64,000 bases of DNA from Narcine bancroftii (taxonomy: Eukaryota). A program made the position numbers and the translations under genes. Location of the stretch: NCBI RefSeq assembly GCF_036971445.1, contig NC_091478.1, forward strand, positions 88,660,001 to 88,724,000, read 5' to 3'. Positions 12,128 to 59,220 of this stretch are shown here, one piece after another (position 1 is the stretch's first letter; each line of letters starts with the position of its first letter). Under the pieces are notes generated by a model. The model was not told where the DNA came from. It worked only from the letters and a program-made list of their open reading frames with translations, and made no database searches.

Positions 12128-15100
12128 CTGCAAAGAATGCCAGAGATGCAATAAATAAAGACAAAATTTTATATCGTAAGGGATTGATCATGTAGATAGT
12201 TCAACATTGCAGTGTTGAATTGCTGTGTGCTGCAAAACACAATGGAATGCATGTCAAAAAATGCAGAGCTTACATATTAGGAACATATTTAATGAAAAAG
12301 AGTTTACCAGTGGTGTGATAGAGGGAAGGAAACTGAAAGCTCGATTGGGCCAGTTAGCATCTTGCCAACCATAGATGTTAGAATTAATTAAAAGGAAGTA
12401 ACTAATCATGTAGAAAAGCTGAATACAATGAATCCTAATCAACATTTTATGAAAGGCAATTCATTTTTGAAGAATTTGTTTGAGTACTTTGAAAATGTGA
12501 CAAGGGGAGTTGATGGATGGTGCCAAAGAAGATACTGGTATATGAATTAAAAGGCCAAGGAATTCGAGAAAGTGCGTTAGTATGGTTTGAAAATGGGCTG
12601 TTACATAGAAACAAAGAGAATACATGAGTCCTCTTTTTCAGATGAGAGTACCCCAGGGGGTACAGCAGGAAATGGCTCTTATCCCTCAATGTTTGTTTAT
12701 TTCAATTACTTGGAGAAGGAAATGAAATGTGAGGTTTCTTGTTTGTCAAAGACATTAAAATTGATGGAAGGGAATGTTGTGATGACTGATTCTGCAAAGT
12801 GTTTATGCACTTTGGTAAAAGGAATGAAAAGGCAGATTATATAACTGGAGACTGCAAATGGTGAAGTTCACAGTTCTTGAGCATGAATCACATAATTTTT
12901 GGGATGTGATGGTTTTGTCATATTAAGAGTCTAGACCAGGAGTGGGCAACCTTTTTTTAAAAAAAAACTTCACTGCTCTCGACCCAATTGTTCCTGAAAT
13001 ATTTGGCTTGAGTAAAATTGTCATTGGTCCATTTCCTTTGGAGTTAGGAAACAGTGTGCATGAGTCTATTAGAGATGACTGAAACTGGATTTTCATTCCA
13101 TTCACATACCACCTTGAGCAATCCCTTACTAATCACAGGTAAAACACAAGATTCTGTTGATACCTTGGTTAAGTGAAAAAACACATAAATGCTGAAGAAA
13201 CTCGGCAGGTCAAACAGTGCCTTTATGTAGCAAACCCACTAATCACAGAACACTTGTGGCATAGGGATTACTTAAGGTGGAATGGGAGTTTAATAAGGTT
13301 GGCCACCCCTAGTCTAGACAGCCTCCCTGTTTCTGCTTATACTTGACATAGGGCTCATGACAGAAATGTTGGTTACCCATTACTTCCTATAAATGCTGCA
13401 CGAATTTCTCCAACACATTGATGTATTGCACTCGATGTCTGGATCTGCACACTTTCTTGCTTAACTCTAGATAGTTTGAGGTTGTATTCCTTGAAGTTTA
13501 CAAAGAACACCAAATACATTACTCAAATATCCAAGATCATAATGGGGTTGGACTAGAAAGATGTTGAGAGGTTTTCAAAGATGGGAGATACAAAGGGACA
13601 TGGTTTAAAAAAAGGGGGCAAGTCATTTAAAATTGGGGCAGAAATTTCTTCTTTTGAAGGGCAGTGAATAGCTGGAATTATCTACTCCCTGAAGGTAGTG
13701 GAGGCTATACTGTATTTAAGGGGAGGTGTATAAATATGTCAAAGATGAACTAAGGGGTACTGGCACAGATTAGTCCAGTTTAGAAGAGCCAGTTGGCCTA
13801 CTCCTGTTCCTATTTCCTTGTGTCCTTGATGTCAAGAAGTGGTTTTTCCCCACAAAGATGGACTCTCTTGAACAGTTTGCCAGGATCCAGTGAACTTCAA
13901 TTTTGCTGAATTGCTTTATGTAAGAGATATGTTTGTTTCAGCCAACGGCAAAGTTCACTTCTTACAAAAGAAAGCTATCTTAAAAAAAAAATTCCCAGTT
14001 TTGATCATCTGGAACAGGTGGTAGGGTGGGGTGAAGGCATGGATGGTGCAATCAGAGAGGAATTTCCTTCCTTTCCAACAAGCCTGGGTCTTTTTAAATC
14101 AGGGTTTGGATGAGTACAAAATGCACATTTGGTGAATATAACATAATTGATGTGGAAAAAGCTAATAGGCCATCAATGTTTGTATGTTTGACAAGATATT
14201 TGATTGTGAAAATGAAAGGTAGCAATCAAGAAAAGGCTCCACACACCTTTCAGCTCTGCAGGATTTGTCTCCTTTCCGGTGGTTATTCCTGTCAGTATGA
14301 CACCATCAGAGAGGAAAAATTCAGCAGCTCTGCCGGTGTCTGATACACTGATATCTGATGTCACAGCGTGTGAGCTGAAAACAGCGAACAACAGGTAAAC
14401 TATTGCAATGCATTATTTCAAACACCAGAGTATTATAATTAACAGTCAATGAGATCACAAGATAAAGAACAGAAGCAGGCCACTAGGCCCATAAAGTCTG
14501 TTCCATGACTCTATGCTAAGCTAAACTATGCTCACACCAAGTTCCAATTTCTAGCATTTTCCCCATATCCCTCGATACCTTTACTCATTAGGTACTTGTC
14601 CATTTTCTGTTAAATACTTCTAGCAATCTGGCCTCCACTGCTTTGTGTGGCAGTGAGTCCACAAATCCACGACTCTGACTAAAGAAGTTCTTCCTTCTCC
14701 CTGTTCTAATTGGATAACTTCTATCTATCCTGCATGCTTTTTATTATTTGCAAAAATATCTTCTAATCCTGCTCTGTTCCTCCAACTAGTTTGCATTTCC
14801 AGTCAACTTGAGCCAGTTCCTTTCTCATACCACCATAATTTCCTTTATTCCACTGAAAAATTGATACATCGATAACATTTTTACCTTTTTCAAATTTGAA
14901 ATTGAGTTCAACCATGTTTATGGTCACTGTTCCCTAGAGGTTCGAAGACCTTTAACTCCCTAATGATCTCCGGTTCATTGCACATGACCCAATCAAGAAC
15001 TGCTGATCCCCTGGTGGGCTTCTCAACAGGCTGTTCAAAAAATCCATCCCTTAGGTTTTCTACAAACTCACTCACCTGTGATCCAGTAATTTCCTGTCCT

Positions 15101-18100
15101 TCCCAATCCCCTGCCATGTTAGAATCCCCCATAATTATTTTGATATTATCTTTGTGACATGTCCTTTGTATTTCTGTCTGCATCTCATAGTCCACTTCTG
15201 GACTGCAGTTTGAGGACCTGTACATAACTGCTAATATGATCTTTTTACCCTTGGTATTTCTTAATTCAACCCATACTGATTCTACTGCTTTAGACCCTAT
15301 GTCCCTTCTTTCTACTGATTTAATGTCATTACTTATTATCATAACCACCCCTCCTCCTTCCTGCCTTTCTTTCCTATAGAGTGTGTATCCTTGAATATTG
15401 AGCTCCCAATCGCACGTATCATTGAGCCATGTTTCAGTGTGAAGAAAATTAATGAAGATTGAAGCCTACAATGTAGACTGGTACGTGTTAATCAACACAC
15501 TGGGCAGTTTCAAACAGGCATACATCTCAATCACCCATTTGTTCTTAATTCTTAATATTTTTCAAACCATCCACCTTCATGGAGACTTCATCAATCTATT
15601 CCATACCAGTCACTGTCATAAAATAATTCCTCTAAGGATGTCCATGCCCTGTGCGCAATTTGTATTTTAACTGAATATTGGGTTGAAGCCAATATCCAAT
15701 AAACCATTATAATTATATGGCAGAGCTGGATAGAGGGACCATATAGACAACTCCTGCTTCTATTATGATCTTTTAATTGTGAATATTTAACGATATCTGC
15801 ATAAATCTATAAAATCCTGTGTTCCAGCCATTCCTCATTATTTGATTTTTGTTAGATACGGGGTTGGCTTCTCCTATCTACAATGTCTAGACATGCTTTT
15901 GTAATGAAACAACCAAAATCACAACTTTTGCTTTTGACAGGTTATTGATGGATACAGGTAGTCTTTCCTCTTGGAAATTTTGTCAAGATCCAGTGGTGAT
16001 GCTTTTAGTGAACTATCCCCCAATACATTTCTTGGAATATATCCCTGTATTATTTCATATAGTCCAAAGAAAGACTTGTATATTCTTTAGGGGCAAATAA
16101 TCAATGAGGACACTTTTGATATATAATCTCAGCTATAATATAGTCAAATGCATCAACATTTCAGCAAGGTTTTACAAAGAATAATGAGACCAATGACCAA
16201 ATAATCAGTTTTTAATGCTGTGGATTGAGAGTTCAGAACACAGAGAAATCATTTTTTTCTTCATACTCTTCAGCAGACAGGAGAATCCAGTTTTAATATT
16301 GTATGTGAAATATGTCCATCTGGTGAGACAAAACTGTCAGCCTAGATTCTTTATTCAACTCTCTAGAGTGAAGATTGAAACCAGGGTCATTTGACTCAAG
16401 GCAAGAATGCTAATGTTACTATTTTTAACCATCTTCAGGATTTAACTTGTACTCTTGTTATTCATTTCCCTCCCATGGTCTGTTTGTCAAGTGCTGATAC
16501 AACAGTGGTTGGGTGACAGTATTCATACTTAAGTTAGGTATTAACAATGTTAAGACACTCTCCAATAATGAGCGCAGAACTAAAAGTGACCCTTCATCAC
16601 AGACCAATTATAATTGAGCTATTAGTGCTGAGATTGTATCTCAAGTGACCTCATTAACTATTTGCACTAAAGAATATACAATTATAAATGCAAGTCTTTC
16701 TTTACGCTACATGAAATAATATAGGGATATTGCCAAGAAATGTATGGGGGTGGTGGGGGGAGAGGGAGGGAAGCATCATCAGCTAGAAAAATACTAACTG
16801 GACCTTGACATTTCTATCTTTTGGAGATAAGACCATTGCTTTGTCAGGGGATTTTTCTCTTGGATACCACACGATTTGATAGCTTTTATTGTTTGGTTTT
16901 TAAAAAGCTTTCCTGATGCCCAATTCTTCCCTCCCAAAAACAATCACTATTCTACCAAAGTGGTCTTCCTACTTATTTACTGCATTTGACCACATAATAC
17001 TGAGATTTGCTTGGCTGAAAATGTGAAACATGCTGTATATACTATAATATTGAATGGCAAAGGTGGCTTGGGAGACCAAATACCCAACTCCAATGCCTGC
17101 TCTTTTTGGGCACAAGTTGTATCACCTAAAAGGGTAAAGGCAATAGTAGCAGAGGAACAGCATCTCAGAAGTCATGTTTTCCTGTCTTCTTTATCGCTGA
17201 ATCAGTTCTATAACTGCATTCTGGGCATTAACCAGAAGGACTGTGATGGTTCATAAGCATCCACTACCACTCCTTGAGGGGAAAGTTTGACACCCACAAA
17301 GAATCAAAAGGTATTAAATATTACAAAACAGCAGAACATAAATGGATATATTTGAATGGGAAATTTTGGAAGAGATAAACTTTGAATTGGGAGCAATTAT
17401 TTCAGCAATACCTGTGTTTTTTCTTAATATCAGTAAAGATTTGAATGTGCTCAGCTCCTATTTGTCTGCGGTATCTAAGAAGATCACCAGCACATGCATC
17501 CAAAAACCCTTCATCTGAAACTTGTGAGAATACAAATCCTTCAGCTCGAATAAAATCAGCATCTAGGGAAGAAATAAATGATGTTTATTCTGGGAGCGGC
17601 CACACTAAACCAGAAATTAGAATCAGAATTTGTCCTTGTGTGTCACAAAATTTGTTTTATGGCAGCATCACCGTGCAAACATTTATAAAAACCACATTTC
17701 AAAATAGTGCAAGAAAACGATAAGCTAAGGTAGTCATTGTGGTTCATTGTTTATTCAGAAATCTCATGGTAGAGGGGAAGAAGCTGTCCTTGTGCCACTG
17801 AGTGCTCATCTTCAGGCTCCTGTACCTTCTTCCCCAATGGTAGCAGAGTGAAAAGGGCATGGCTGAGTCGTGTGTGTCCTTGAGGATAGAGGTTGCTTTC
17901 TTAAGATACCACCTCTTGTAGATGTCCTTGATGGAGTGAAGACTGGTGCCCCTGATGTTGCAGGCTGAGTTAACAGCCCTCTGGAGTTTTTCCTGTCCCG
18001 AGCATTGGCAGCTCCATACCAGACCGAGATTCCACCAACTCTCCACAGTACACCCGTAGAAGTTTGAGTTTTTGGTGGCATGCCGAATCTCCTCAAACTC

Positions 18101-26000: not shown

Positions 26001-29000
26001 TGCCTAGATTCTTGTTCACTCTTATTGGCCTCTAAAGACATTTGAGAACTTGATAAACATAGGAAAAAGGATTCGATAACATAAATTTGTTCTGCCACTC
26101 AACAAAATGAGGACTGATTTTAATACCATATCTGCTGCTTCTCTAATCCCGTGATTTTTTTTCATAATTCTTAAAATTTGATCTAATAACATCTAATTTG
26201 TTGCATAAATTTAAAATGTCCATGACTGGGGTTGCATTGCTTGTGTATGGACAAAGTTCTTTCCATAAATGCAATTGTTTTAATGGTAATTCAACAGTTT
26301 CATATTCACCTTTATTGGTGGTAGCATTTTATCTGGAATAATTTAAATTCCCAAGCTACTATGGTGGAATTTGAACTCTCATCCATTGGCTTGTTCAGGG
26401 TTTTGAGAAATCAGCATTTTATCTCCACAGTTTAAGAAACTGTCAAAATTTTCTGCTAGTATTGAAACTTTCCAAAGAAGGATGTAAGCCAGCAAAATTG
26501 CTATACTGTTTCAATGCCATGACATGGAGTTTGTCTAGTTGTATGGAGGAGGGTGAAGTTTTAAAAAATGTATTGGGGAAGGCAGCCTATCTAGCATGGG
26601 CAGTAGATGCTGCATTTGACTTTGCGATCATAAGCTGGATTTGGGCTCCAGTGCCAAGAAACGGCATTTTAAGAATTTACAAAATTGACTTTAATTGCAG
26701 GTTTGCTGGAGCATTAATACCAACTATGCGAGTCCATGCATTTTCATTTCATCATCACACAAAAATCCAGATAGCAGGTTTGCATCATATTCTACAAGTA
26801 ATATACAGTACAAGTTCAAAAATGTCTTGGTCACACCAACTAGAGCTTCACCATTACCAGTCTTTTGGTGAGTTTATTTATTTGCACCATTCATTCGTGT
26901 ACCTTGACTGCATATTCCAATGCATATCCAATCATGGTATTTTAAAAAAATCAACAGCTGGGCAAATGGCAGTGAAGTGTGGAACGTCCTTCTGAAAAAG
27001 GATCAGATCTATTTGAGAGACAAAGACGTCTTACAAAAACATCCCCTCTTGCAACCGAAGATGAGGACTATTCTTTTGGACTGGTTAATGGAGGTAAGCA
27101 CTCCAATTAAATTGCCAGTCCTGCTTTGATTTTATTAAACCAATATGTGAAATATTCTTGGGGAAAATTGGCTTCAGAATTTGAATTTAAAATCTATGCT
27201 TTATTTGTAGATATTGACAAACTTGGTTTTTGCTTTTTAGTTATTCTCCAACAATGGTCTACAAGATTATGAAAGGCATATTTAGGGTGGACATCTAGTG
27301 CCTGTTCACCAGGACAAGAATAGCGAACACCAGAGGAGAGGAGTACAAAATAAAGGGAGGGAAGTTTGGGGGAGACATCAGGGGTTAGTTTAGTTGTGGG
27401 TGCCTGGAATGCCTTGCCAGGTATAGTGGTGGAGGCTGAAATATTAGGGGAATTTAAGAGACTTGGGCACATGGATGGAAGAAAAATAGAGGGTTATGGT
27501 TAGAACTTTTGTTAAGGAATATATGGGTCAGCACAACATCAAGGGCCAAAGGGCCTGTACTGTGCTGTAATGTACTGTGGTCATCAACGAATTGGCCTCT
27601 CCATTAGAGCATTTTTGTATTAGGATTTTGATCATTGGGATATGATGTTCAGGTTAGAATGGTTATACAAATAACTCCAGAACGAGAGTTGTAATATAAT
27701 GAGTCTTTCCTGCCAAAGACAAGAAATCTAGAAAAGGCTGAATAGTCTGTATTTCTGGCGTTTTGTTTGAATTTATAAACTATTGACAGAACTAGAATAA
27801 TGCAGTTTGACACCCATACATTAGTTTTCAGGGATGCTTCAATTAATATTTTAAAAAGTAACTGGAAAAATCATAGGAAATTTAGGTGCCTGTTAATTTT
27901 GATCTATTCATCTATCTATCTATTTATTTATTTATATATTTATTTTGCAACATTGAAAAGGTTTGTGAAGTCTACAAGCTACACAGAGAAACCTTTTATT
28001 TGGCCCAGGACTACTTTGATAGATTTATGGCAACACAGAACAATGTTGTAAAGACAAGATTGCAGCTTATTGGTATTTCGGCTTTATTTATTGCTGCAAA
28101 GCTGGAGGTATGATATTTACAAGCAATTCACAAATTGAGCATACTTTCCAACAGAGCATTCAATTATAATTTTTTTTTCCCAGGAAATATATCCACCAAA
28201 GTTGCACCATTTTGCTTTTGTTACTGATGGGGCTTGCACAGAAGAAGAAATTCTCAACATGGAACTTGTTATTTTGAAGGTACTTCAAATTTAGTGTTTT
28301 CAATAACTGCCATTATACAGGGAAGCTGAAGAAATTAAAATTATCTGTTGTTCAAAGATATTTGGAAATGCTGTCAATTGTATGTAACCTATTATCCAAT
28401 GTTTTCAAATTATTCCAGGCTCTAAAGTGGAGTTTGTGTCCTGTAACCATTGTATCTTGGCTTAACATCTACATGCAAGTTGCTTATTTAAAAGAAATAT
28501 ATAAAGTACTGGTTCCACAATACCCCCAGGAAATGTTTATTCAAGTAATGGAGGTAAACTCATTTAGGTTAATTTTTTTAGCTACTGTTAACAAATAATC
28601 GGGCAGTAATGATTTTAACTATCCATCAGCTTGATCTCTTACTTATGGAAAAGTGGCAGCTTCAGCTTTATTATTTCACTTCTTGTGCCATAGTTCACAA
28701 AGCATCAGGTAGGTTTTTAATATGTAACACAATTGACAGGATTACATTTAATTTCATTAACAAGTTTTATTTTGTGCTTAGGCTTTGAATGGAGTGAAAT
28801 AGAAGGATGTGTAAAATGGATGATTCCATTTGCTATGGTCTTGAGGGAAGCAGAAACTCTAAATGTAACATTTTTCAGGGGTGTAGAATATTGGAATAAA
28901 TTACTGTTTGTAGATCAAAATAATTTTTAATATATAGCACATCAATTTAAAACTGAAATACAAAAGCTGAGTAGTGACCAATAAAAACAGATTGTGCTAT

Positions 29001-30268
29001 TAATGGAAGGTTTCATCCTTGATAACCAGTTAATTTTAAATGTTTTTTTGTAAAAACGTGCCCTGATTTAGAAACGGGGGAAGTGAGCAGTTTTTTGCAA
29101 GCAGCTGTTGACTGCAGAAAATATTGGGTTCCACATCCATAGAAGCACAGGTATACCATTGTGCATACACAGAAATATGGTCTCGACTCGTAACTGTGTT
29201 GATCTCTCCAATAGATATGGGGAAGAAAGAATTTCCAGTCTCTTGCTTTTAAGTTCAGTTTTTGTAATGATAATAGTCACATGTTAATTGCTTTCTCAAT
29301 AGCTACTGGATCTCTGTATCTTGGATCTCGAGTGTTTGGAGTTCACATCTGGAGTAGTGGCAGCTTCAGCTTTATATTATTTCACTTCTTGTGCCATAGT
29401 TCACAAAGCATCAGGTAGGTTTTTAATATGTAACACAATTGACAGGATTACATTTAATTTCATTAACAAGTTTTATTTTGTGCTTAGGCTTTGAATGGAG
29501 TGAAATAGAAGGATGTGTAAAATGGATGATTCCATTTGCTATGGTCTTGAGGGAAGCAGGAAGTTTAAAACTGAAGAAATTAAAAGGTGTCTGTCCTGAG
29601 AACATGCATAACATACAGACACACTCCAATTGTTTGTCATTATTGGTAAGCTTGATTTTGTATGCCTAGAGGACCAGACATTTTATAACTAACGTACCTT
29701 TGTACAACATTTGGGTGGGGGATGGGGAAGGGAAAGGGGAAATTGAACATGTTTCCTTTTAATCCCTTTCTGATCAATTTGCACAGTTGAACTGAGTTCA
29801 GCGTGATAATTCAAAAAGTCACCAATGCACTAAGAATGCAAGTTCTGAACAATATTTGTCTCCAGCATAACCTGAGTCTTGCTGTTTGCAAGAAAAAAGG
29901 AGCTTTCTCTTGCATTATGACAGTCACTACACTTAATACCAACAAAAATGCTCATGAAGACAAAAAACAAGAATGTCAATGTATAATGCTTGAGATGCAC
30001 CCCTTGCTGCATACTTCTGAAAATGAGGAATACCTCTTTTGAAATGCCTCAAATTTGAATCTTAAAGTAAATTTTCCAGTTAACAATTCAAATGAGCAAA
30101 AATTCATTTCATCAATTGCCTTGATTTAATTTTTGTTGCTTTTGTTCTAAGGATAAAGCTCACTCAAGGCAAGCAATGCTGTTGGAACAAAGTTGCGCCA
30201 TACCTTCTGGAATTTTGACCCCGCCACAAAGCAGCAAGAAACAGCACTCTTGGAGTGGGTCCTTGTGA
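23019..30268 (+). CDS. CCNE1: G1/S-specific cyclin E1, 11 coding exons, 408 aa
   Basis: join(23019..23032,23312..23396,23636..23695,26701..26867,26958..27093,27961..28107,28184..28279,28419..28553,29303..29414,29488..29645,30152..30268) = 1227 nt. Motifs [61 protein letters not shown]1 lies downstream, the known CCNE1 (not CCNE2) synteny. Confidence 0.96.
23312..23396 (+). CDS. CCNE1: CCNE1 exon carrying the NLS ([11 protein letters not shown])
   Basis: 85 nt; ttcctctttag / gtgagt borders. Confidence 0.92.
23636..23695 (+). CDS. CCNE1: CCNE1 exon ([20 protein letters not shown])
   Basis: 60 nt; resembles the FLQDPDEE segment of tetrapod cyclin E1. Confidence 0.85.
24069..24086 (-). promoter_or_regulatory. 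Candidate CTCF site
   Basis: Minus strand reads CCACTAGATGGCA, matching the CCASYAGRKGGCR core. Confidence 0.6.
26701..26867 (+). CDS. CCNE1: CCNE1 exon (VCWSIN...[10 protein letters not shown])
   Basis: 167 nt; ttgcag / gtgagt borders; SPLP motif. Confidence 0.9.
26958..27093 (+). CDS. CCNE1: CCNE1 exon (WANGSEVW...[11 protein letters not shown])
   Basis: 136 nt; start of the cyclin box. Confidence 0.95.
27961..28107 (+). CDS. CCNE1: CCNE1 exon ([11 protein letters not shown]...AAKLE)
   Basis: 147 nt; cyclin box. Confidence 0.95.
28184..28279 (+). CDS. CCNE1: CCNE1 exon ([10 protein letters not shown]...VILK)
   Basis: 96 nt; AG/GT borders. Confidence 0.95.
28419..28553 (+). CDS. CCNE1: CCNE1 exon ([10 protein letters not shown]...[12 protein letters not shown])
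   Basis: 135 nt; AG/GT borders. Confidence 0.95.
28630..28930 (+). pseudogene. Degenerate tandem copy of the two following CCNE1 exons (pseudo-exons or alternative exons 28630-28708 and 28782-28930)
   Basis: 28652-28853 matches 29356-29559 except for a 2-nt deletion; weaker codon-aligned similarity continues on both sides; in-frame stop ends at 28930. Confidence 0.85.
29303..29414 (+). CDS. CCNE1: CCNE1 exon (LLDLCILD...VHKASG)
   Basis: 112 nt, intact. Confidence 0.93.
29488..29645 (+). CDS. CCNE1: CCNE1 exon ([13 protein letters not shown]...[13 protein letters not shown])
   Basis: 158 nt; donor gtaagc. Confidence 0.93.
30152..30268 (+). CDS. CCNE1: CCNE1 terminal coding exon (DKAH...[10 protein letters not shown]...GSL*)
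   Basis: C-terminal Fbw7 phosphodegron LTPPQS; TGA at 30266-30268. Confidence 0.95.
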   Translation, partial: DKAHSRQAMLLEQSCAIPSGILTPPQSSKKQHSWSGSL

Positions 30269-30547
30269 AATTCAACTGCAACTTTTAAATTTAGTGGGTG
30301 TTTTTTTTTTCCCCACATCTAGAAATCTAAATGAAAATGAACAGAAATGTTGGGACTTCATTTGTGTAATATCAGATGCTGAAGACTGCCAGGAATTTTG
30401 CTCTCATTGTGCTCTAGTGGGAGTCTCACTTGATTCTGGGCCTTTTAAAGCTATCTACTTGTACGACTTGTTTTTATGCACCATTTGAAAGCTGTTTGTA
30501 TAGCCAAAAACTCCAACCAAATCAGGAATACTTTAAGTAATCCTAAA

Positions 30548-30651
30548 TGCTGCTAAGGAGGGTGGCTCCCTGAAAAATGAACAGTGAGGTGATAGTACTG
30601 ATTTATAAAATTGTTAATGAACTTTAAGCTGCTATGTTTATTTTAAATAAA
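30548..30651 (+). promoter_or_regulatory. CCNE1 3'UTR: miR-15/16 seed sites and polyadenylation signal
   Basis: TGCTGCTA at 30548-30555, GCTGCTA at 30628-30634, AATAAA at 30646-30651. Confidence 0.75.
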
Positions 30652-31052
30652 GGTACATCTATATTATATGCCCCTGTTCCATTTATAATGATGCAACTGG
30701 CTGAAGGTATGGAGGATGGAGAACAAGGGCTCTTTGATCTTGCTGCAACAAAGGGAAGTCAAGTTTGAGAAATCAGGAAATGTAAGCCTTCATCCCTAGG
30801 GCCATTAAGTGGCTGAGATAAGAGATGCATATTTTGAATTTTCCCTATATTTGGGGAAGGTTCCATGAAATTGGAAAATAGCACACGCCTTGTTGGATAA
30901 AAAATTTGCAGAGCAAACGAAATAATTTATATCTGCCCCTCCAGCCAAGTGTTACAGCCATATTCTGGTTTATAGACGCTCACCTTAATTAACAGTGGCT
31001 GTGGGTGGGGCAGGACTAGGGTGCTCCGCTGGCTCAGCGATTGCCCCAACTG

Positions 31053-31424
31053 AGGGTTTGTGTGTTGCTTCTGAGAACATTCTTTTAGAATTTTAAACTT
31101 AAATTTTTATTTATTCTAATTATTTTATTAATTTTACTTAATTCTTTTGCCGGTTGCTGGTTCCTTGAATTCCAAATAACAGGGATTTTGCTGTATTCAG
31201 AACTTGTGCAAATGAAAGTAATTACACCACTAGACTTGCTTTTCCTGATACAGGGGCAAATGATGCAGTTTTATATTACAGTAAACTACTAAGTACAGGT
31301 TGATGGGAGATAGCTGCTCATTTTGAAAACTCTTAAATATTTTTCAAGAGGTAGCATGGCTCAAAAATCAAGATATTGTAATCAAGCAATGTCAACATTA
31401 TTAACCAATTTATTGATGTTCTGT
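31053..31424 (+). repeat. ~372-bp direct repeat, copy A
   Basis: Near-identical to 36678-37048 (about 3 differences by eye). Confidence 0.93.
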
Positions 31425-32544: not shown

Positions 32545-32960
32545 GCAGCCGGCAGCATGGTGGCGAAGCTGCTCCGAGTTCGACACCAAAAAGAACCTGG
32601 GACTTGTTCCCTTGAAGCACAAGATCCCATCCCCTACCGTCTGGGGCCGCCCCGCCTCCTCGATCTTCAAAGCCGCCGCCTTGACCTCGGCGTGCTCTTC
32701 GTCGTGTCGGTGGCGGCGAGCTGGGCTGACAGGCTGATTCACAGACACTAAGGAACCCGTCAACATGGTGGCCGCGGGGTTCCTCGCACACATAGAGGGG
32801 TATCCACAACAATCGCAGCACAAAATATTCTCCTGCTTGAGCGCAGCCTTGCCAAGGAATCGCCCTCGGTCTCAGCACCACCGCCAGCTGAACGCCATGT
32901 TCCTCGCGCGGAGGATGCCGGGAGCACACGCAGAGAGACGCCGGACCTGCTGCAGCTGCC
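32545..32960 (-). pseudogene. Inverted, diverged copy of the URI1 promoter / exon 1 / start of intron 1
   Basis: Collinear blocks match 37105-37695: ccggcatcctccgcgc..gaacatggcgt; cccctctatgtgtgcgagga; ccccgcggccacc; gaagagcacg..aggt; ggagcagct.cgcca. Confidence 0.85.
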
Positions 32961-33090
32961 CGCGCGGAGGATGCCGGGAGCACACGCAGTGAGGCCTGCT
33001 GCAGCTGCCCGCGCGGAGGATGCCGGGAGCACACGCAGAGAGGCGTCGGACCCGCTGCAGCTGCCCGCGCGGAGGATGCCGGGAGCCCAC
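32905..33090. repeat. GC-rich minisatellite, ~3.5 units of 49-56 bp
   Basis: cgcgcggaggatgccgggagc begins at 32905, 32961, 33010 and 33066. Confidence 0.92.
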
Positions 33091-36533: not shown

Positions 36534-36679
36534 CTTTTCCATGTGGCATGTGCCCTTCCCCTCTCACTTCATGTGCTGCCATTCTCCACGCAGCCCTCCC
36601 TGCACCCTGCGCGGAGGGAGGGAAACGAGTGTGATGCCTCGCTTGGGGAGCTCTGGAGGGCACATGCCACATGGAAAAG
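36534..36679. repeat. Perfect 23-bp inverted repeat with 100-bp spacer
   Basis: cttttccatgtggcatgtgccct (36534-36556) and agggcacatgccacatggaaaag (36657-36679). Confidence 0.9.
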
Positions 36680-37048
36680 GGTTTGTGTGTTGCTTCTGAG
36701 AACATTCTTTTAGAATTTTAAACTTAAATTTTTATTTATTCTAATTATTTTATTAATTTTACTTAATTCTTTTGCCGGTTGCTGGTTCCTTGAATTCCAA
36801 ATAACAGGGATTTTGCTGTATTCAGAACTTGTGCAAATGAAAGTAATTACACCACTAGACTTGCTTTTCCTGATACAGGGGCAAATGATGCAGTTTTATA
36901 TTACAATAAACTACTAAGTACAGGTTGATGGGAGATAGCTTTCATTTTGAAAACTCTTGAATATTTTTCAAGAGGTAGCATGGCTCAAAAATCAAGATAT
37001 TGTAATCAAGCAATGTCAACATTATTAACCAATTTATTGATGTTCTGT
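36678..37048 (+). repeat. ~371-bp direct repeat, copy B (abuts the URI1 CpG island)
   Basis: Near-identical to 31053-31424. Confidence 0.93.
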
Positions 37049-37049
37049 T

Positions 37050-37760
37050 TTGCTGCCTGCGCTCCCTGCCTCCGCCGCGCGGGGCGCTAGCGCCGTCACT
37101 AGGGCAGGTCCGACGCCTCTCTTGCGTGGGTCCTCCCCTCCCGGCATCCTCCGCGCTCGGAACATGGCGTGCAGCTGCAGGTGGTGCTGAGCCTGGAGGG
37201 GGGATTCCTTGTCGGAGCCGCGCTGGAGCTGGTGGGATTAAAAATGCGAGTGTGAGATGTTTCGTGCGGCGACGTGGTGGATGAAAGCGCCTGCCCCCTC
37301 TATGTGTGCGAGGAGCGTGGAGCCCCGCGGCCACCGTTTTCGCACACACAAACACTTCTTTAGGACTCCCCGTTGCTGAGTGTTCGCGGATCGGACCCCC
37401 GGCCGCCGCCTGCAGGGACATGGCGGACTCGCCGCCCCGCTCCGCCGCCCCGCAGACCCGCTCGCACCCGCTTTCCCGACTCAGAGAAGAGCACGACAAG
37501 GTAAAAGGCCTTTAATAGAGAGAGCGGCCAGTTGGAAGAGCGAGGAGGCTGAGCGGTGGGAGTGCCGGTCTCCGTCGGAAGGGGCGGGGACCCTCCGCCC
37601 GTTGCTTGTGTTTCGAGGGTTCGCTGCCCGGCTCCGGAGGTCCTGCTGCACCCACGACTGGTGGCGGACTTGGAGCAGCTCCGCCAACGCTGTTGCTCAT
37701 CTCTCTCCCGGTGCAGAACTTGGTGGTTCTGCAACTGTTGCGATTAACCTGTTCGACCAG
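37050..37760 (+). promoter_or_regulatory. URI1 CpG-island promoter
   Basis: CpG-dense; YY1-like AACATGGCG at 37161-37169. Confidence 0.8.
37420..37500 (+). CDS. URI1: URI1 coding exon 1
   Basis: gacATGGcg Kozak context; AAG|gtaaaa donor; lies in a CpG island. Confidence 0.88.
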
Positions 37761-46700: not shown

Positions 46701-49700
46701 TTTATTCGTTCAACAAGGTTATTACATACAGTAAAAAAAAAAGTACATATTATGAACGATAAAAAAAATTTTTATATATAAAAAAGAAGACCCCCCCCCC
46801 CCCCCCTCAGCCAGCTCTCTTTAGGAGAGCCAAAGAAAGAAAAAAAAACTGAAATGTATTTACTAAAATCTAATCAAGGTAAATCTAAATGTAAATACTC
46901 TGAATATAAAGACCACTTATTAAGAAAAAAAGAATAATTATCAAGTAAAACATGTGATTTTTTTCCATTACCAAACAAGTTTTCATCTCATTATGCCATC
47001 TATTAATATCAATCACATTAGCATTTTTCCATGTACTTGCTCTACATTGTTTTGCTACAGATAAAGCTAAATATACAAAAGCAATCTGAAATTTATCTAA
47101 TCCCAAATCTTTCAAAGGATTCAACTCACCCAACAAAAATATTGTCGGGTCCAGAGGTATTTTGATCTTATACAAATGTTCCAAAAACAATTGAATTGCT
47201 TTCCAAAAAGATTGTATATGTACACATAACCAAACAGCATGAAAAAAGTTCCAACCGAATTACCACATCTAAAACAAGAGTCTGATTCACTAAAACTATA
47301 TTTAAAAAAAAACTTTTCAGGTGTTAAATACAATTGATGTAAAAAAAATTGTAATTAACCATTGCATAACGAACATTTATCGATCTAGTAACACTATCAT
47401 GACAAATATCTAACCAGTCATCCTCAGAGAAAGTAAAGTTAATATCCTTTTCCCATTTAATCTTCAATCTATCCCATCCCTTTTTTTCCATACTTTCCTG
47501 TAATATTTGGTACATCAATGAAATATATCCCTTCTTTGGTGCAATCACAAGAAAAGATTCAAATTTAGTCAATTTAGGTAAAATCATATCTCTACCAAAT
47601 ATTTGTTTTACTAGGGGTCGAAGTTGACAATAAATGAATAAAGAATTCTCATTAATACCAAAATCTTCCCTCATTTGATTAAAGGATAAAAATTGACCTT
47701 CTTTAAAACAATCCCCCAAGTTTTTTATACTTTTAAATTTCCAATGTAATAAACAATGATTATACATTGAAAAAGGAATAAATTGGTTATTATATAATGG
47801 TGTTAAAATCAATAATTTACCCTGAGAACCTAACGTTCTATTTTTCCTCATCCATAACTTCATTAAATGTTTTAGTATAAGCACATTATATTGTTGTAAT
47901 AAATTTAAATTCCACCGAAACAAAAATTGATGTATTTCAAATTCAGAAATATTCACCATCTCAATTTTAGCCCAACTTGGGGGGCCGTTCCAAATCCATT
48001 AATGAACTAATAAATTTAAATTGAGCTGCCTCATAATAATTTTGAAAATGTGTTAAGCGTAATCCCCCTAATGCATATTTCCCGATTAGCTTATTCAAAG
48101 CTACTCTCGGAAATTTACCCTTCCAAAAAAATTCCCTAACCATTTTATTTAAATCTCGAAAAAAAATCTTATTAAGTAAACACGGAATTGACTGAAACAA
48201 ATATTGTATACATGGAAAGATATTCATTTTGATTGTATTTATTCTTCCAATTAAATTTATAGGAAGATCCTTCCACTTAATCAAATCAGCTTTGATCTTT
48301 TTCATTAACAGTACATAATTTAATTTATATAAAGATTGATAATCAACATCCACATTTATATCCAAATATTTAATTTGATCAGTCCACTTCAAATTAATAA
48401 TATCCTTATAAACTGAATAATCTCCTTCACCTATCAGTAAAATTTCACTTTTTTCCCCAGTTAACTTTATATCCAGATAAAGATCCATATTGTATTAAAC
48501 ATTCCTTCAAGTGTAAAAGTGACTGAGCTGGGTTTGTTAAATACACCAGTACATCGTCAGCAAATTAATTTTATACTCCTCATCTAAAACTCTCATACCT
48601 TGTATCTGTGTATTTTGTCGAATCAACTGTGCTAAAGATTTACATTTATTTATTTCTATGTACATATAATTTAAGAAATAACATCACAATATTCGAACAA
48701 ATATGGGAACCATACATAAAATACAATAAAGAAATCCTACCATGGACCTCCACCACCTAAAATGACAGAAGGAGAAGACAACGAAATGAACTGACTTAAA
48801 AGACAAAAATTTCTGGTTTATTTTTATTAAGTGACGACATTATTTAACGGGTTTAATGTATCTTATAAACTGAACTTTGAATACATGGGAAGGGGGGAGA
48901 GGGAGGAAGGGAGGGGGGAAAAGGGGAGAAAAAAAACTGCTAAAGGTTCAATTACTAACGCAAACAAAGCTGGAGACAAAGGACAATCTTGTCGAGAAGG
49001 CTTGGGTTGCTTGATGTAAATTTGTACTTCTGTATAACCTGAATTAATATTTGGAAATTAGTTAAAGGCTTCCTTTTTGGGAAATTATGGGAGAAATTAG
49101 TACACTGTGAATTATTGGCATTGACCATTCTCCTTCCACATTAGATTATTATCTTGTAGTTTCACAGTTATCTTTTCCTTCTTTGGAGCATTGTTCTTTG
49201 TTATATTTAAGAAGCAAATATGGGTCTAGACTCTAGACAGTGATATAGGCTATAAAATTATAAAAAAGTATTATCGCTGAACTAATCATGTCATAACTTG
49301 ATATCGACTCACGCAGTAAAATTTGTCGGCTGTCGATTAAAACAAGTTTTTTTTTTAAGGGTTCTTTTACTAAGGGTTGATGCCAGTTACAGCTTTTTTC
49401 CTTCTGCTAGCTCAGAGATGTCATAACAAATCAGCAATTGATTGAGATATTATTTCCTTCTTTATTTTAGAAAGAGCACAATATGGTTTATGTCCTTATG
49501 TTGATGTGCTTTATGCATAAATCAAAACAGTTTAAATCAATTGAACATGAATCTAATGAACAGACAGATAGAAAAGCTTTTTAAAGTGTACTCAAATCCT
49601 GTGATGGTGATGAAATAATTTGAAGTGTATCCAGGACATTGTTTGGTTCCATTATATTGAAGGATTTGCTTCATCTTTGTGACATACATTTTAAATTCTG

Positions 49701-55700: not shown

Positions 55701-57129
55701 ACAGGAGCATAGATTCTGAGATGCTTTATTAACTTGTAATAAGTAATGTAGTTCAGCACAATCTTGTTAATCTGATGCTCAGAAGTTGTTGCCAATACTA
55801 ATTGTTACTGTATTTAGCAAGTTACTGCCACCAAGTAGGGATGCAATATAGCATTTTATTTTTCTTTGAGGTGAATTATTGATCATTCTTTTGGTGATTC
55901 ACCAAAGAAGCCTACATGGTGCTTTTGCTATGCTTTGTCTGGTTATTACCTGTTGATTATTTTGTCCATTTTAACTGATATTTAACCATCAAAAAGTTCT
56001 AATTTTGGCATTGAAAGCAATTGGCAATGTATTTTTTTGTCACGTGTAATTTGCTTTCGACGGATCACTGTCTGCCACCATCATGGTCAAAAGCAGTTAG
56101 TGCAACTCGCATAGGCTCATTGGTCCAGATTAATCCACCATTTGATCACAGGACCAAGATCCCTGTTGATCAAGGTTTAGCTTTGGATTTGCTGTTTTTT
56201 TTTCATTTGTTTTGCAGTGGTGCATTGTGGGAGGACTAGCCTTTCTCTGGCATTAACCTGATTTTGCTTTGCTGAATTTTCAAGTGATGGACTAATGATC
56301 AAAATGATGTTGAGATGCCTTGCATTCCTATTTATACACTGAGGATTTTTTTCTGTTTGATGTGTCTTGGATAGACTTTAAAATATCCTTTTTCTCTTTC
56401 TCGAATCCACCTTGTGGCCAAAAATATCTTATTCTCTTGAGATGTTAACAATAATGACATAGCTTGCACCTATCCATCTACCCTGCATAAATGAGTGGCT
56501 TCCTAGTCCAGAGATCAGTTGAGAGATGGAGATTAGGTATTATTATAGCTCAGGCTTGGCAGGATAATGAGTTTCTTTCTTCCAGCTCCGGATGATTGGA
56601 TTTTTTACAACAATCATAATTAACAATAGTTAAAATGATGTGGATTTTTGAAAAGAATTTAAATTCTTAAGTTGCCTTGACAGTACTTAAAATTTCTTTC
56701 TAAGGCTCAATAAAAGTTTGAAATTTTGATTGCATAGTTTTCTGTTTCTTAAATTTGACGGGCATAAGGACATCTTTGGGAAATTGTATGCTATTTTCAT
56801 ATTCTGTATATTGACTTGCATTGGGAAATTATGACAAATTATATTTACAGCATAGATCCCTCATGGGATTTGATTTGTATTTAAATACAAATTTATTGCC
56901 AATTGTTTGCAAAGTGAATGAAGACAACATGTTTAGCTCATGAGAATATAGACACTAACAAAGTTTTCTATTGCATAATTGTTTTTGTTACAGGTGCCAT
57001 TTGGCCCACTTGCATTTATGCCAGGACAATTAATCCATACCAACGAAGTCACTGTTTTACTTGGTGACAATTGGTTTGCAAAGTGCTCTGCAAAGCAAGC
57101 TGTTGGCCTGGTGGAGCACAGGAAAAAAC
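37420..57129 (+). CDS. URI1: Unconventional prefoldin RPB5 interactor 1, first four coding exons (3' partial)
   Basis: join(37420..37500,50373..50407,55161..55239,56994..57129): ...RLREEHDK VVSNCKEKIQHW VKVQNDYDALQGRLKTLPDQLSYDVM VPFGPLAFMPGQLIHTNEVTVLLGDNWFAKCSAKQAVGLVEHRKK, the prefoldin-alpha domain of URI1. Confidence 0.95.
40951..41055 (-). mobile_element. RTE 3'-end fragment
   Basis: Reverse complement is nearly identical to 59116-59218. Confidence 0.85.
41123..43568 (+). mobile_element. Internally deleted Ty3/Gypsy LTR retrotransposon in URI1 intron 1
   Basis: LTRs at 41123-41337 and 43357-43568 (TG..CA); PBS-like tggtgaccc after the 5' LTR; polypurine tract at 43337-43352; decayed gag (WTSQPLVWF..AEAQF), protease (LVDKGAEVSVLP) and integrase (HIHVDII; YHPQSNGLMERFH); no RT seen; flanks atac/gtac. 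Confidence 0.9.
45174..45414. mobile_element. Short solo LTR-like insertion
   Basis: TGTAGC...GCTACA ends; flanks catt/cagt; CpG-rich. Confidence 0.55.
46690..48640 (-). mobile_element. 5'-truncated L1-clade LINE (3' half of ORF2)
   Basis: FADDVLVY RT motif near 48545-48565; GRINTIKMNIFP, GGLRL..FQNYYEAA, CFRCG; frameshifted. Confidence 0.9.
50373..50407 (+). CDS. URI1: URI1 exon 2 (VVSNCKEKIQHW)
   Basis: 35 nt; aacag / gtaagt borders. Confidence 0.92.
54366..54830 (+). mobile_element. CR1-like LINE 3' end
   Basis: ERVQRRFTRMLPGL, FSLECRRMRGDLIKVYK. Related copies at ~27285-27580 (+), ~39710-39960 (+), ~51010-51700 (-), ~12460-13830 (+, interrupted). Confidence 0.85.
55161..55239 (+). CDS. 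URI1: URI1 exon 3
   Basis: 79 nt; tttag / gtgagt borders. Confidence 0.93.
56994..57129 (+). CDS. URI1: URI1 exon 4
   Basis: 136 nt; ttacag / gtgagt borders. Confidence 0.95.
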
Positions 57130-58458
57130 GTGAGTTACTGCCAATTTTAAAGCTGAATTTTGTTATTTTTGAATGGCATTGCAAACTCAAGTTTCAGATA
57201 TTTTGGAGTTTAAACAGCATGATTCCCATGTGGGAGAAAAACAAATAGTATATTCTTGCAAATAACTGACGAATAGGATTTGATTTTCTGACTGTTTTAA
57301 TTATAAAGTAATCTAATTTACTATTAGATCAATTTGGGCAATGAGCTACTGGTGATGACTGGTTACTGTTTGGCTTTGCATCAACAGATTGGATCTTCAA
57401 GTACACTCAAGTGTTGAAATTATTTTTCTTGAGGCTGAGTAACAACCACATTGATACATAAATGTGCATGTGGCCAGCTGATTGTCTTTGAGCCAATAAA
57501 GCAGATTGATGAAAAATAGTATTTTTTGCTTGAGATTTTAGACTATGCATGAGTGGGATTTAATGTGTAAATAACACAGGCAAAATTTAAAAAGTGAATT
57601 AATTTATTTGAGTTATTTTTCTGGATTCTGGGCAGGTCCTGGCAAATTGGAAAATAGCAAATTTCAAGCCATTGTTTTTTTTTAAAAAGAGGGGATGTAG
57701 GCAGAGACATGATTATCGGCTAGCTGTCGTTGAAGCTATCATTAATGAAGAAACAAGGATTATGGGAAAAGGCAGGTAGGACTGAGCAGATATTGAATGG
57801 CGGAGCAGGCTTGATGGGGGAGACTCTTGCTCTTATTTCTTGTTTCTTAAGTATTAAATGACCTAAACCACTCACACTGTCAGGCAAACATTAAAATGAC
57901 AGAATATCCATGGAAACTTTGGACCCCTTGACACATTATCTTGGGTTTCTATAGTGCTTTCAATCATGGACAGAAGAAAATCTTAACATGGTTAAAGCCA
58001 TTGAAAATATTTAAAAAATTTACTGGAGACGTAAAAATCTCTACTTTAGGGTAGGTGCACAAATAGATGAACTGTGAAGTTTAGCGCCTCGTCTCCATTG
58101 AACCCTCTTATTCACGTTTCCTGGCTTTGGTATTGAAGGAGTGTGAGTTTACATAGCAGTTGGGAATGCTGATGGCTGTTTGACAACTTTGAGAAATGGT
58201 ACAACTCTGGGAGGGTGGAATTGCTGCTTAGATCAGGAAAACATTGAGTTGGAAAAATAGCATGGCCCACAGGTGGGCATCAACTGAATTTATTTGAGAA
58301 GTTTATTTCTCTGCTCTGTTGTTTTAATTCTATTAAAACTGTAAATGTGGAATTGCAAATATCACCAGCAAGATGGATGAGGTTATTTTGGCATATGAAA
58401 AATATTTAATATTATGCAAAAGTTTAAAAATAAAGATTAAATGGTCTTGTGCCCTGAA

Positions 58459-59220
58459 ATGCAAGGATCGACAACGAGATAGACAACAGACTCGCCAAGG
58501 CAAATAGCGCCTTTGGAAGACTACACAAAAGAGTCTGGAAAAACAACCAACTGAAAAACCGCACAAAGATAAGCGGATACAGAGTCGTTGTCATACCCAC
58601 ACACCTGTTCGGCTCCGAATCATGGGTCCTCTACCGGCATCACCTACGGCTCCTAGAACGCTTCCACCAGCGTTGTCTCCGCTCCATCCTCAACATTCAT
58701 TGGAGCGACTTCATCCCTAACATCGAAGTACTCGAGATGGCAGAGGCTGACAGCATCGAATCCACGCTGTTGAAGATCCAACTGCGCTGGGTAGGTCACG
58801 TCTCCAGAATGGAGGACCATCGCCTCCCCAAGATCGTGTTATATGGCGAGCTCTCCACTGGCCATCGTGTCAGAGGTGCACCAAAGAAGAGGTACAAGGA
58901 CTGCCTAAAGAAATCTCTTGGTGCCTGCCACATTGACCACCGCCAGTGGGCTGATATCGCCTCAAACCGTGCATCTTGGCGCCTCACAGTTCGGCGGGCA
59001 GCAACCTCCTTTGAAGAAGACCGCAGAGCCCACCTCACTGACAAAAGACAGGAGGAAAAACCCAACACCCAACCCCAACCAACCAATTTTCCCCTGCAAC
59101 CGCTGTAACCGTGTCTGCCTGTCCCGCATCGGACTTGTCAGCCACAAACGAGCCTGCAGCTGACGTGGACATTTTACCCCTCCATAAATCTTCGTCCGCG
59201 AAGCGAAGCCAAAGAAGAAG
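58459..59220 (+). mobile_element. Young 5'-truncated RTE-clade LINE
   Basis: EIDNRLAKANSAFGRL, QLRWVGHVSRMEDHRLPKIVLYGEL, C-terminal CNRCNRVCLSRIGLVSHKRAC; short (GAA)n tail. Confidence 0.92.

Follow-up and report, generated by a model that had tools for sequence, protein, structure and literature searches.

An intronic copy of two CCNE1 exons in the electric ray Narcine bancroftii, probably an old tandem duplicate with a converted middle

The cyclin E1 gene (CCNE1) of the electric ray Narcine bancroftii carries, within one of its introns, a second and damaged copy of two of its own exons. The gene lies in a window of 64,000 nucleotides (nt), the whole stretch of DNA analysed here (contig NC_091478.1, positions 88,660,001 to 88,724,000), and positions are counted from the first letter of that window. 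How did the copy arise, and is it used? The most probable reading, to which we give a probability of about 0.6, is that it descends from an old tandem duplicate that has decayed, that gene conversion has recently replaced its middle with sequence from the working copy, and that it is skipped in the spliced transcripts seen.

The reading starts from a tract of 202 nt (28652-28853) that equals 204 nt of the working copy (29356-29559) without a single substitution (95% upper bound 1.5%); the only change is a 2-nt deletion, which falls inside TATAT at 29373-29377. Within the tract lie the 3' half of an exon, an intron of 73 nt, and 72 nt from the start of the following exon; the two copies are direct and 706 nt apart. 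A preliminary description of this DNA, made from the letters alone, had reported this identity and had stated that it extends over the intron and both splice sites. Both statements held on realignment, and the intron copies 28709-28781 and 29415-29487 agree over all 73 nt.

Two copies of an exon pair in CCNE1

The identification of the gene as CCNE1, also made in the preliminary description, agrees with the protein comparisons. The exon at 27961-28107 matches vertebrate cyclin E1 proteins and is 100% identical to P0002, an annotated protein that carries the N. bancroftii label; the best protein matches of the gene are cyclin E1 across vertebrates, as expected of a CCNE1 orthologue. Eight exon stretches, translated singly, equal P0002 letter for letter. 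They include 29303-29413, 29490-29645, and 30152-30265, and the annotated protein thus uses the downstream copy only. P0002 aligns with human cyclin E1 (PDB 9NYQ_B and 1W98_B) at an E value of 7e-159, with identical numbering through the cyclin folds. A structure prediction of P0002 from alignment A1 (mean predicted local distance difference test, pLDDT, 36; predicted template modelling score, pTM, 0.22) was not used. In a DNA search of the 3.33-Gb (gigabase) genome CCNE1 was found at a single locus. A second cyclin E locus, an exon series on contig C5 that contains DPVKLRDFKHA, we infer to be CCNE2.

Are there really two copies in the DNA of the animal? Four of the 15 listed sequencing runs were examined, in the form of contigs: X1 (DNA, perhaps from the sample that was assembled), X5 (a different sample from a different study, though perhaps of the same animal), X6, and X9, which comes from a relative. 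Unique contigs of X1 cover 27950-28698 (depth 11.8), 28824-29404 (11.5), and 29530-30700 (12.9) with no difference from the assembly; they cross all four junctions of the tract, and the first of them carries the 2-nt deletion. The X1 contig of the shared tract (29375-29559), into which the two copies collapse, has a depth of 24.1, double that of the unique contigs. A contig of X5 (28824-29330) spans the right junction of the upstream copy with a single A>G difference. Exon and intron sequence is present in real DNA as two direct copies, and the single, misassembled copy for which the preliminary description had allowed is made very unlikely by the covered junctions and the doubled depth in X1. 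An artefact of assembly or polishing, which the shortness and near-identity of the tract and the possible origin of X1 in the source sample might recommend, is extremely improbable given those four junctions and the one crossed in a sample from another study.

Features of the duplicated region of CCNE1 (positions in the window)
Feature	Position	Strand	Remarks
Working exon before the duplicate	28419..28553	+	amino acids 236-280; donor joins 29303 (joint in X5 and X6)
Intron stub	28554..28626	+	73 nt; likely original acceptor at 28625-28626, AT where the working copy has AG
Pseudo-exon A	28630..28708	+	decayed copy of 29303-29414; new AG at 28628-28629; 79 nt, open, phase 0 to 1
Homogenised tract, upstream copy	28652..28853	+	no substitution; a deletion of 2 nt near 28668
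Exact copy of the 73-nt intron	28709..28781	+	GT donor and AG acceptor
Pseudo-exon B	28782..28930	+	first 72 nt as in the working exon, tail diverged but in register; stop TAA at 28928-28930
Spacer	28931..29302	+	
Working exon	29303..29414	+	amino acids 281-318; LECLE at human VDCLE 289-293; Ser296 in place of the Tyr of relatives
Homogenised tract, working copy (likely donor)	29356..29559	+	
Working exon	29488..29645	+	amino acids 318-370; includes HNIQTH
Last coding exon	30152..30268	+	LTPPQS degron; T393/S397 aligned to human T395/S399

Homology beyond the tract and the origin of the copy

Does the likeness between the copies continue outside the identical tract? When alignments are anchored at the tract edges and left ungapped, the right flank matches at 17 of 30 positions (P 0.003-0.006) and the left at 8 of 12 (P 0.012-0.026), with a combined P of about 0.001 (0.0008-0.0009) for both edges. 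Further to the left, 10 of 14 positions agree (P 0.02) between 28625-28638 and the acceptor and start of the working exon (29301-29314); here AT stands in place of the working AG, and about 28 nt are absent before the match resumes. The old acceptor would thus have been lost and a new AG have arisen three bases on. The homology of the flanks appears weak, in register, and significant only when anchored. The preliminary description had claimed similarity beyond the tract, and this stands for the anchored tests and not for unanchored local alignment of flanks and spacer, which was non-significant in five of five tests (P 0.26-0.88).

Over the flanks, 24 of 60 positions differ (~40%, or 0.44-0.70 substitutions per site), against 0 of 202 in the tract (Fisher P 6e-18). 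Such an island of identity inside older, in-register homology is best accounted for by gene conversion, as the preliminary description had proposed. Conversion between close paralogues is described as covering a few hundred nt and ending where indels and substitutions have accumulated (PMC3924837).

The divergence of the flanks also suggests that the duplication is old. In the relative sampled by X9, 15 of 128 intron positions differ (0.13 substitutions per site); the flanks are far more diverged than the introns of the two species, which predicts that near relatives share the duplicate. An X9 contig aligns along the stub intron as far as 28636, which marks the stub as old sequence. About 55% of that run was read; it has no cover over 28637-30250, and the contig end at 28636 may be a repeat edge, an allele, or a gap. 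A scan of metagenomes for orthologous genomic DNA gave 590 pattern matches, none of which was confirmed.

A plausible course of events begins with a head-to-tail duplication of the exon pair (112 + 158 = 270 nt). Since 270 nt with phase 0 at both ends leaves the frame unchanged, a fresh duplicate would have been neutral whether the pair was included or skipped. The upstream pair would then have been silenced through the change of its acceptor to AT, the loss of about 28 nt, and the loss of its distal donor, while its edges drifted to ~40% difference. Judging from the sharp contrast in identity, 204 nt would have been copied over the upstream middle recently, or repeatedly. The 2-nt deletion probably came last. 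TATAT invites slippage, and 17 identical bases lie to the left of the deletion, so it likely occurred after, or during, homogenisation. Together with the earlier loss it would have restored the phase by chance, as about one indel combination in three does.

Several observations weigh against this account. The unanchored tests failed, and gapped versions of the anchored ones give P values of 0.02-0.065. The spacer has no detectable likeness to the neighbouring introns, and the right flank is free of indels over 33-45 nt despite a difference of ~45-50%. The tract has a single change, and it restores phase. The upstream tail is more bony-vertebrate-like than simulated decay of the working copy would make it (P 0.006-0.024; P 0.03-0.08 against non-tetrapods alone), and the right flank matches the CCNE2 exon at 19 of 33 nt compared with 18 of 33 for working CCNE1 (P 0.003, post hoc). 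These tests of bony-vertebrate likeness and of CCNE2 are post hoc and overlapping, and their signal lies largely in tetrapod-only or variable residues and in third codon positions (five of the seven sites in the right flank that tell CCNE2 from CCNE1). Finally, the X5 contig over 28824-29330, at a depth of 19.7, could also reflect an isoform.

The best placed of the alternatives, though an unlikely one, dispenses with an old duplicate: a recent template switch or break repair would have pasted 204 nt into the intron, and the likeness of the flanks would be chance microhomology. The failed unanchored tests, the unrelated spacer, and the sharp tract edges all fit such an event, and recombination is hard at 55-60% likeness, since pairing needs highly similar sequence (PMC3924837). 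A pasted fragment gives no reason, however, for both edges to be in register and significant when anchored, for a remnant of the exon start to lie upstream at the expected place, or for the Tyr codon described below to stand in register (chance 0.055). A search for a repeat or a neighbouring template from which the right flank could have come gave nothing firm: the sequence at 28854-29300 is single-copy in the genome and the best nearby 20-mer matches at 14 of 20 positions. The flank has one 6-bp inverted repeat, at 28861/28868.

Splicing and coding potential of the upstream copy

Is the upstream copy spliced into CCNE1 transcripts? Runs X5 and X6 are not on record as RNA and are treated as RNA because GT..AG joints are present. 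The two runs contain the joints 28107>28184, 28279>28419, 28553>29303, and 29645>30152, and X6 contains 29414>29488; one X6 contig (record 14) links five working exons across the duplicate. The mRNA contigs run 28553>29303>...>30152. Among the joints listed, only canonical ones occur in both spliced runs, and none requires the upstream copy; contigs drop rare forms, so that they reveal the main transcript and do not speak to minor ones. A row of X5 that leads from 29412 back to 28780 is read as the canonical joint placed on the identical copy, since the contig (record 9) is 112 + 74 nt long and ends where the identity ends.

Neither spliced run has a contig over 28558-28745, and X6 has none of its own over 28854-29300, which in contigs that drop rare forms is not evidence. 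The X5 contig over the unique tail has a depth similar to that of the retained last intron (~16.4), and unspliced RNA or pre-mRNA explains it. The spliced transcripts that were seen pass over the upstream copy, which is probably a silent relic. The last intron (29617-30180) is itself covered by a contig in each spliced run (depths 16.4 and 19.7), which suggests retention or slow splicing.

The upstream copy could nevertheless be read in part. Translation bore out the statement of the preliminary description that an AG opens a 79-nt exon of phase 0 to 1, and also that read-through of the second exon ends at 28930. A 10-residue peptide that it had listed from the first upstream exon is encoded, in a frame that is closed by TGA at 28632-28634 and is not that of the 79-nt exon. 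Compared with the working exon, pseudo-exon A is missing about 28 nt after 28638 (a stretch of 10 residues) as well as the 2 nt of the deletion, and its phase is correct only because of that deletion. Eleven residues are absent from the 79-nt exon, among them LECLE, which corresponds to the VDCLE pocket-protein motif of human cyclin E1 (PMC8652076). The exon also reads about 10 others out of frame, in the second cyclin fold. Its peptide thus differs from that of the working exon, and the coding integrity expected of a functional alternative exon has been lost.

With 12 pyrimidines in the 20 nt before it, the new acceptor is not clearly weaker than the working one (13 of 20), so that leaky use is possible. 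Downstream there are phase-0 GTs at 28865, 28883, and 28910, all unused, and an AATAAA at 28980. Possible products would stop at 28930, swap into 29488, or rejoin the last exon from 28865, 28883, or 28910. The isoform of the preliminary description, which ends at 28930 without HNIQTH and the degron, is therefore allowed by the frame and is one of several; a 28708>29488 joint or the phase-0 GTs would keep the degron. Chance readily gives an open tail of 25 codons (P 0.18) or an AATAAA close by (P 0.13). Protein searches gave no sign of such products: EYWN or MEKW occurs in none of 152 fetched proteins of relatives, and the upstream second exon had four matches among longer proteins, all ordinary CCNE1, and none among proteins of 26-84 amino acids. 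Against 1.84 billion representatives it had 16 matches, of which 15 read as pieces of cyclin E and one was an unrelated repeat protein.

Functionally relevant use of the upstream exons at a low level or in one tissue is accordingly doubtful. The product would be either an in-frame swap (28553>28630, 28708>29488), in which the pocket-protein motif is missing, or a form that ends at 28930, before the degron, and whose mRNA is polyadenylated near 28980. The intact copies of the intron and its splice sites, the near-equal acceptors, the single phase-restoring change, and the X5 contig over the unique tail speak for such use. Set against them are the listed joints of both spliced runs, all canonical once the misplaced 29412>28780 is recognised, the dropped residues and frameshift inside a cyclin fold, the ordinary probabilities of the open tail and AATAAA, and the protein searches, in which no protein with the upstream tail was found.

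Residue comparisons, known parallels, and the rest of the window

What do individual residues say about the age of the copy? Tyr occupies residue 296 in 18 of 18 other chondrichthyan rows and in nearly all bony vertebrates, whereas the working copy has Ser (codon 29348-29350), a codon at which X5 and X6 list no difference from the assembly. Tyr296 (TAT) is kept only in the upstream copy, just outside the tract, and chance reversion has a probability of ~0.055. Because Tyr is near-invariant, the working Ser is new and the upstream TAT likely predates it. Tyr296 likely dates the duplication to before the change to Ser and says no more than that about its age.

For residues 349, 350, and 344, 17 chondrichthyan and 34 bony-vertebrate proteins were counted from the 152 fetched, mostly one per species, with fragments and extra isoforms left out. 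Phe at 349 occurs in 34 of 34 bony vertebrates and in none of the 17 chondrichthyans, which all have Leu or Trp; the residue is a clean lineage marker, and the CCNE2 of this genome has Phe. Arg at 350 is seen in 16 of 21 tetrapods, in 0 of 13 bony fish and coelacanth, and in 0 of 17 chondrichthyans. Residue 344 is Ile in 14 and Leu in 1 of the 17 chondrichthyans, Ser in 29 of the 34 bony vertebrates, and Leu in the upstream copy. The working copy, with KLKKLKGV, has the chondrichthyan (shark and ray) state. In the preliminary description the upstream Tyr and FRGV had both been likened to tetrapod cyclin E1, and the upstream pair had been proposed as possibly ancestral; Tyr296 is old, but FRGV is not the shark and ray state (Phe 0/17, Arg 0/17). 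Nor can the upstream pair be called the ancestral exons, since in a tandem duplicate both copies descend equally and one is 'original' only by position.

Could the upstream pair have split off before the chondrichthyan change from F349 to Leu, and been a long-lived alternative exon whose middle was kept alike by repeated conversion? The Phe of bony vertebrates and of CCNE2, a tail free of indels and equally close to CCNE2 and CCNE1, and the flank distance (0.44-0.70 substitutions per site against 0.13 for the introns of the relative) can be cited for this scenario, which we nevertheless regard as quite improbable. Among the bony-like tail residues only F349 is diagnostic, and it needs a single base change (TTA to TTC) that arises in 7-8% of simulations. 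L344 points the opposite way and fits chondrichthyans, and R350, seen only in tetrapods, cannot have been inherited. The left flank matches CCNE1 at 8 of 13 positions and CCNE2 at 7 of 13, where the working copy has 10 of 13. The chondrichthyan cluster members listed include no isoform of this kind, and the motif was chosen after the fact. The fuller version, in which the pair is an ancient alternative 3' module that predates the change at residue 349, is maintained by conversion, and is used in some tissue to give a degron-less protein ending at 28930 through intronic polyadenylation, is slightly less probable still.

A reverse conversion, from the dead into the working copy, was also considered. 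T308, A311, I312, and V337 are lineage-unique residues that lie inside the tract and are common to both copies; set beside Tyr296, just outside it and upstream only, they give a protein-level hint of conversion. Lineage-unique residues make up 4 of 43 in the tract. The N-terminal core has 4 of 176 (P 0.05) but the remainder of the C-terminal region 9 of 80 (P 1.0), so that reverse conversion is unsupported. The working gene has further unique changes at otherwise invariant sites, for example Q212H, E264K, S308T, S385C, and P386A.

How does a duplicate of this kind compare with known systems? As in other vertebrate cyclin E1 genes, the working exons give an ordinary protein with a VDCLE-like motif and a C-terminal degron, in which human T395 and S399 drive turnover in human cells (PMC8652076; for general background on cyclin E turnover, see PMC2835679). 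Unlike in those genes, Ser296 replaces a near-invariant Tyr and the peptides of the duplicate have no counterpart in the 152 fetched proteins. The short identical tract with divergence outside it resembles non-allelic conversion between tandem duplicates (Fawcett and Innan 2011, PMC3924837), except that the CCNE1 copies lie within one gene and the acceptor copy is apparently non-coding. The divergence peaks described in that review, by contrast, mark selected sites in two working genes. Exons 26a and 26b of salamander Nav1.4 (PMC8476164) likewise stem from a tandem duplication of part of the gene, 3' exon sequence, and conversion has taken place between the copies. Both Nav1.4 copies are open, expressed, shared across species, and ~180 kb apart. 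The upstream copy in CCNE1 is broken and lies 0.7 kb from the working one; it is known from a single genome and has not been seen in spliced form. Mutually exclusive exons such as those of Dscam (PMC3236188) and U2AF1 (PMC5224494) also stand side by side in the same phase; in CCNE1 an exon pair was duplicated, the first copy has lost coding integrity, and no alternative use is seen. No published report of this duplicate was found in the literature searched, most subscription papers and supplements lying outside its coverage.

On the most likely reading, the locus would show on a small scale, in nature, how conversion acts on two dead exons of a core cell-cycle gene. With perfect splice sites kept beside the working ones, the gene would be a few changes from a variant that stays in frame but lacks the pocket-protein motif or the FBW7 degron, and an isoform that proved real and regulated would be a natural route to stabilised cyclin E1. 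The locus is also a trap for annotation and read mapping, given that a canonical joint was placed as a false 'back-splice'.

Elsewhere in the window, a direct repeat of 372 nt (31053-31424 and 36678-37048; 98.9% identity, 5.6 kb apart) lies just past the CCNE1 stop. Judged by record length, the 3' contig of X6 would end near 31424 and that of X5 would run ~2.4 kb past 30700; the first copy of the repeat may lie in a long CCNE1 3' untranslated region. At 32905-33090 and 37053-37232 there is a GC-rich tandem array (period 49-56 nt) with an inverted partner, 72% similar, ~4 kb away. Open frames at 14908-15465, 47324-48494, and 58458-59108 (minus strand) resemble, by eye, fragments of LINE endonuclease and reverse transcriptase. 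On the plus strand, 56982-57128 has a prefoldin-family match above the cut-off, presumably URI1, the neighbour of CCNE1 in human.

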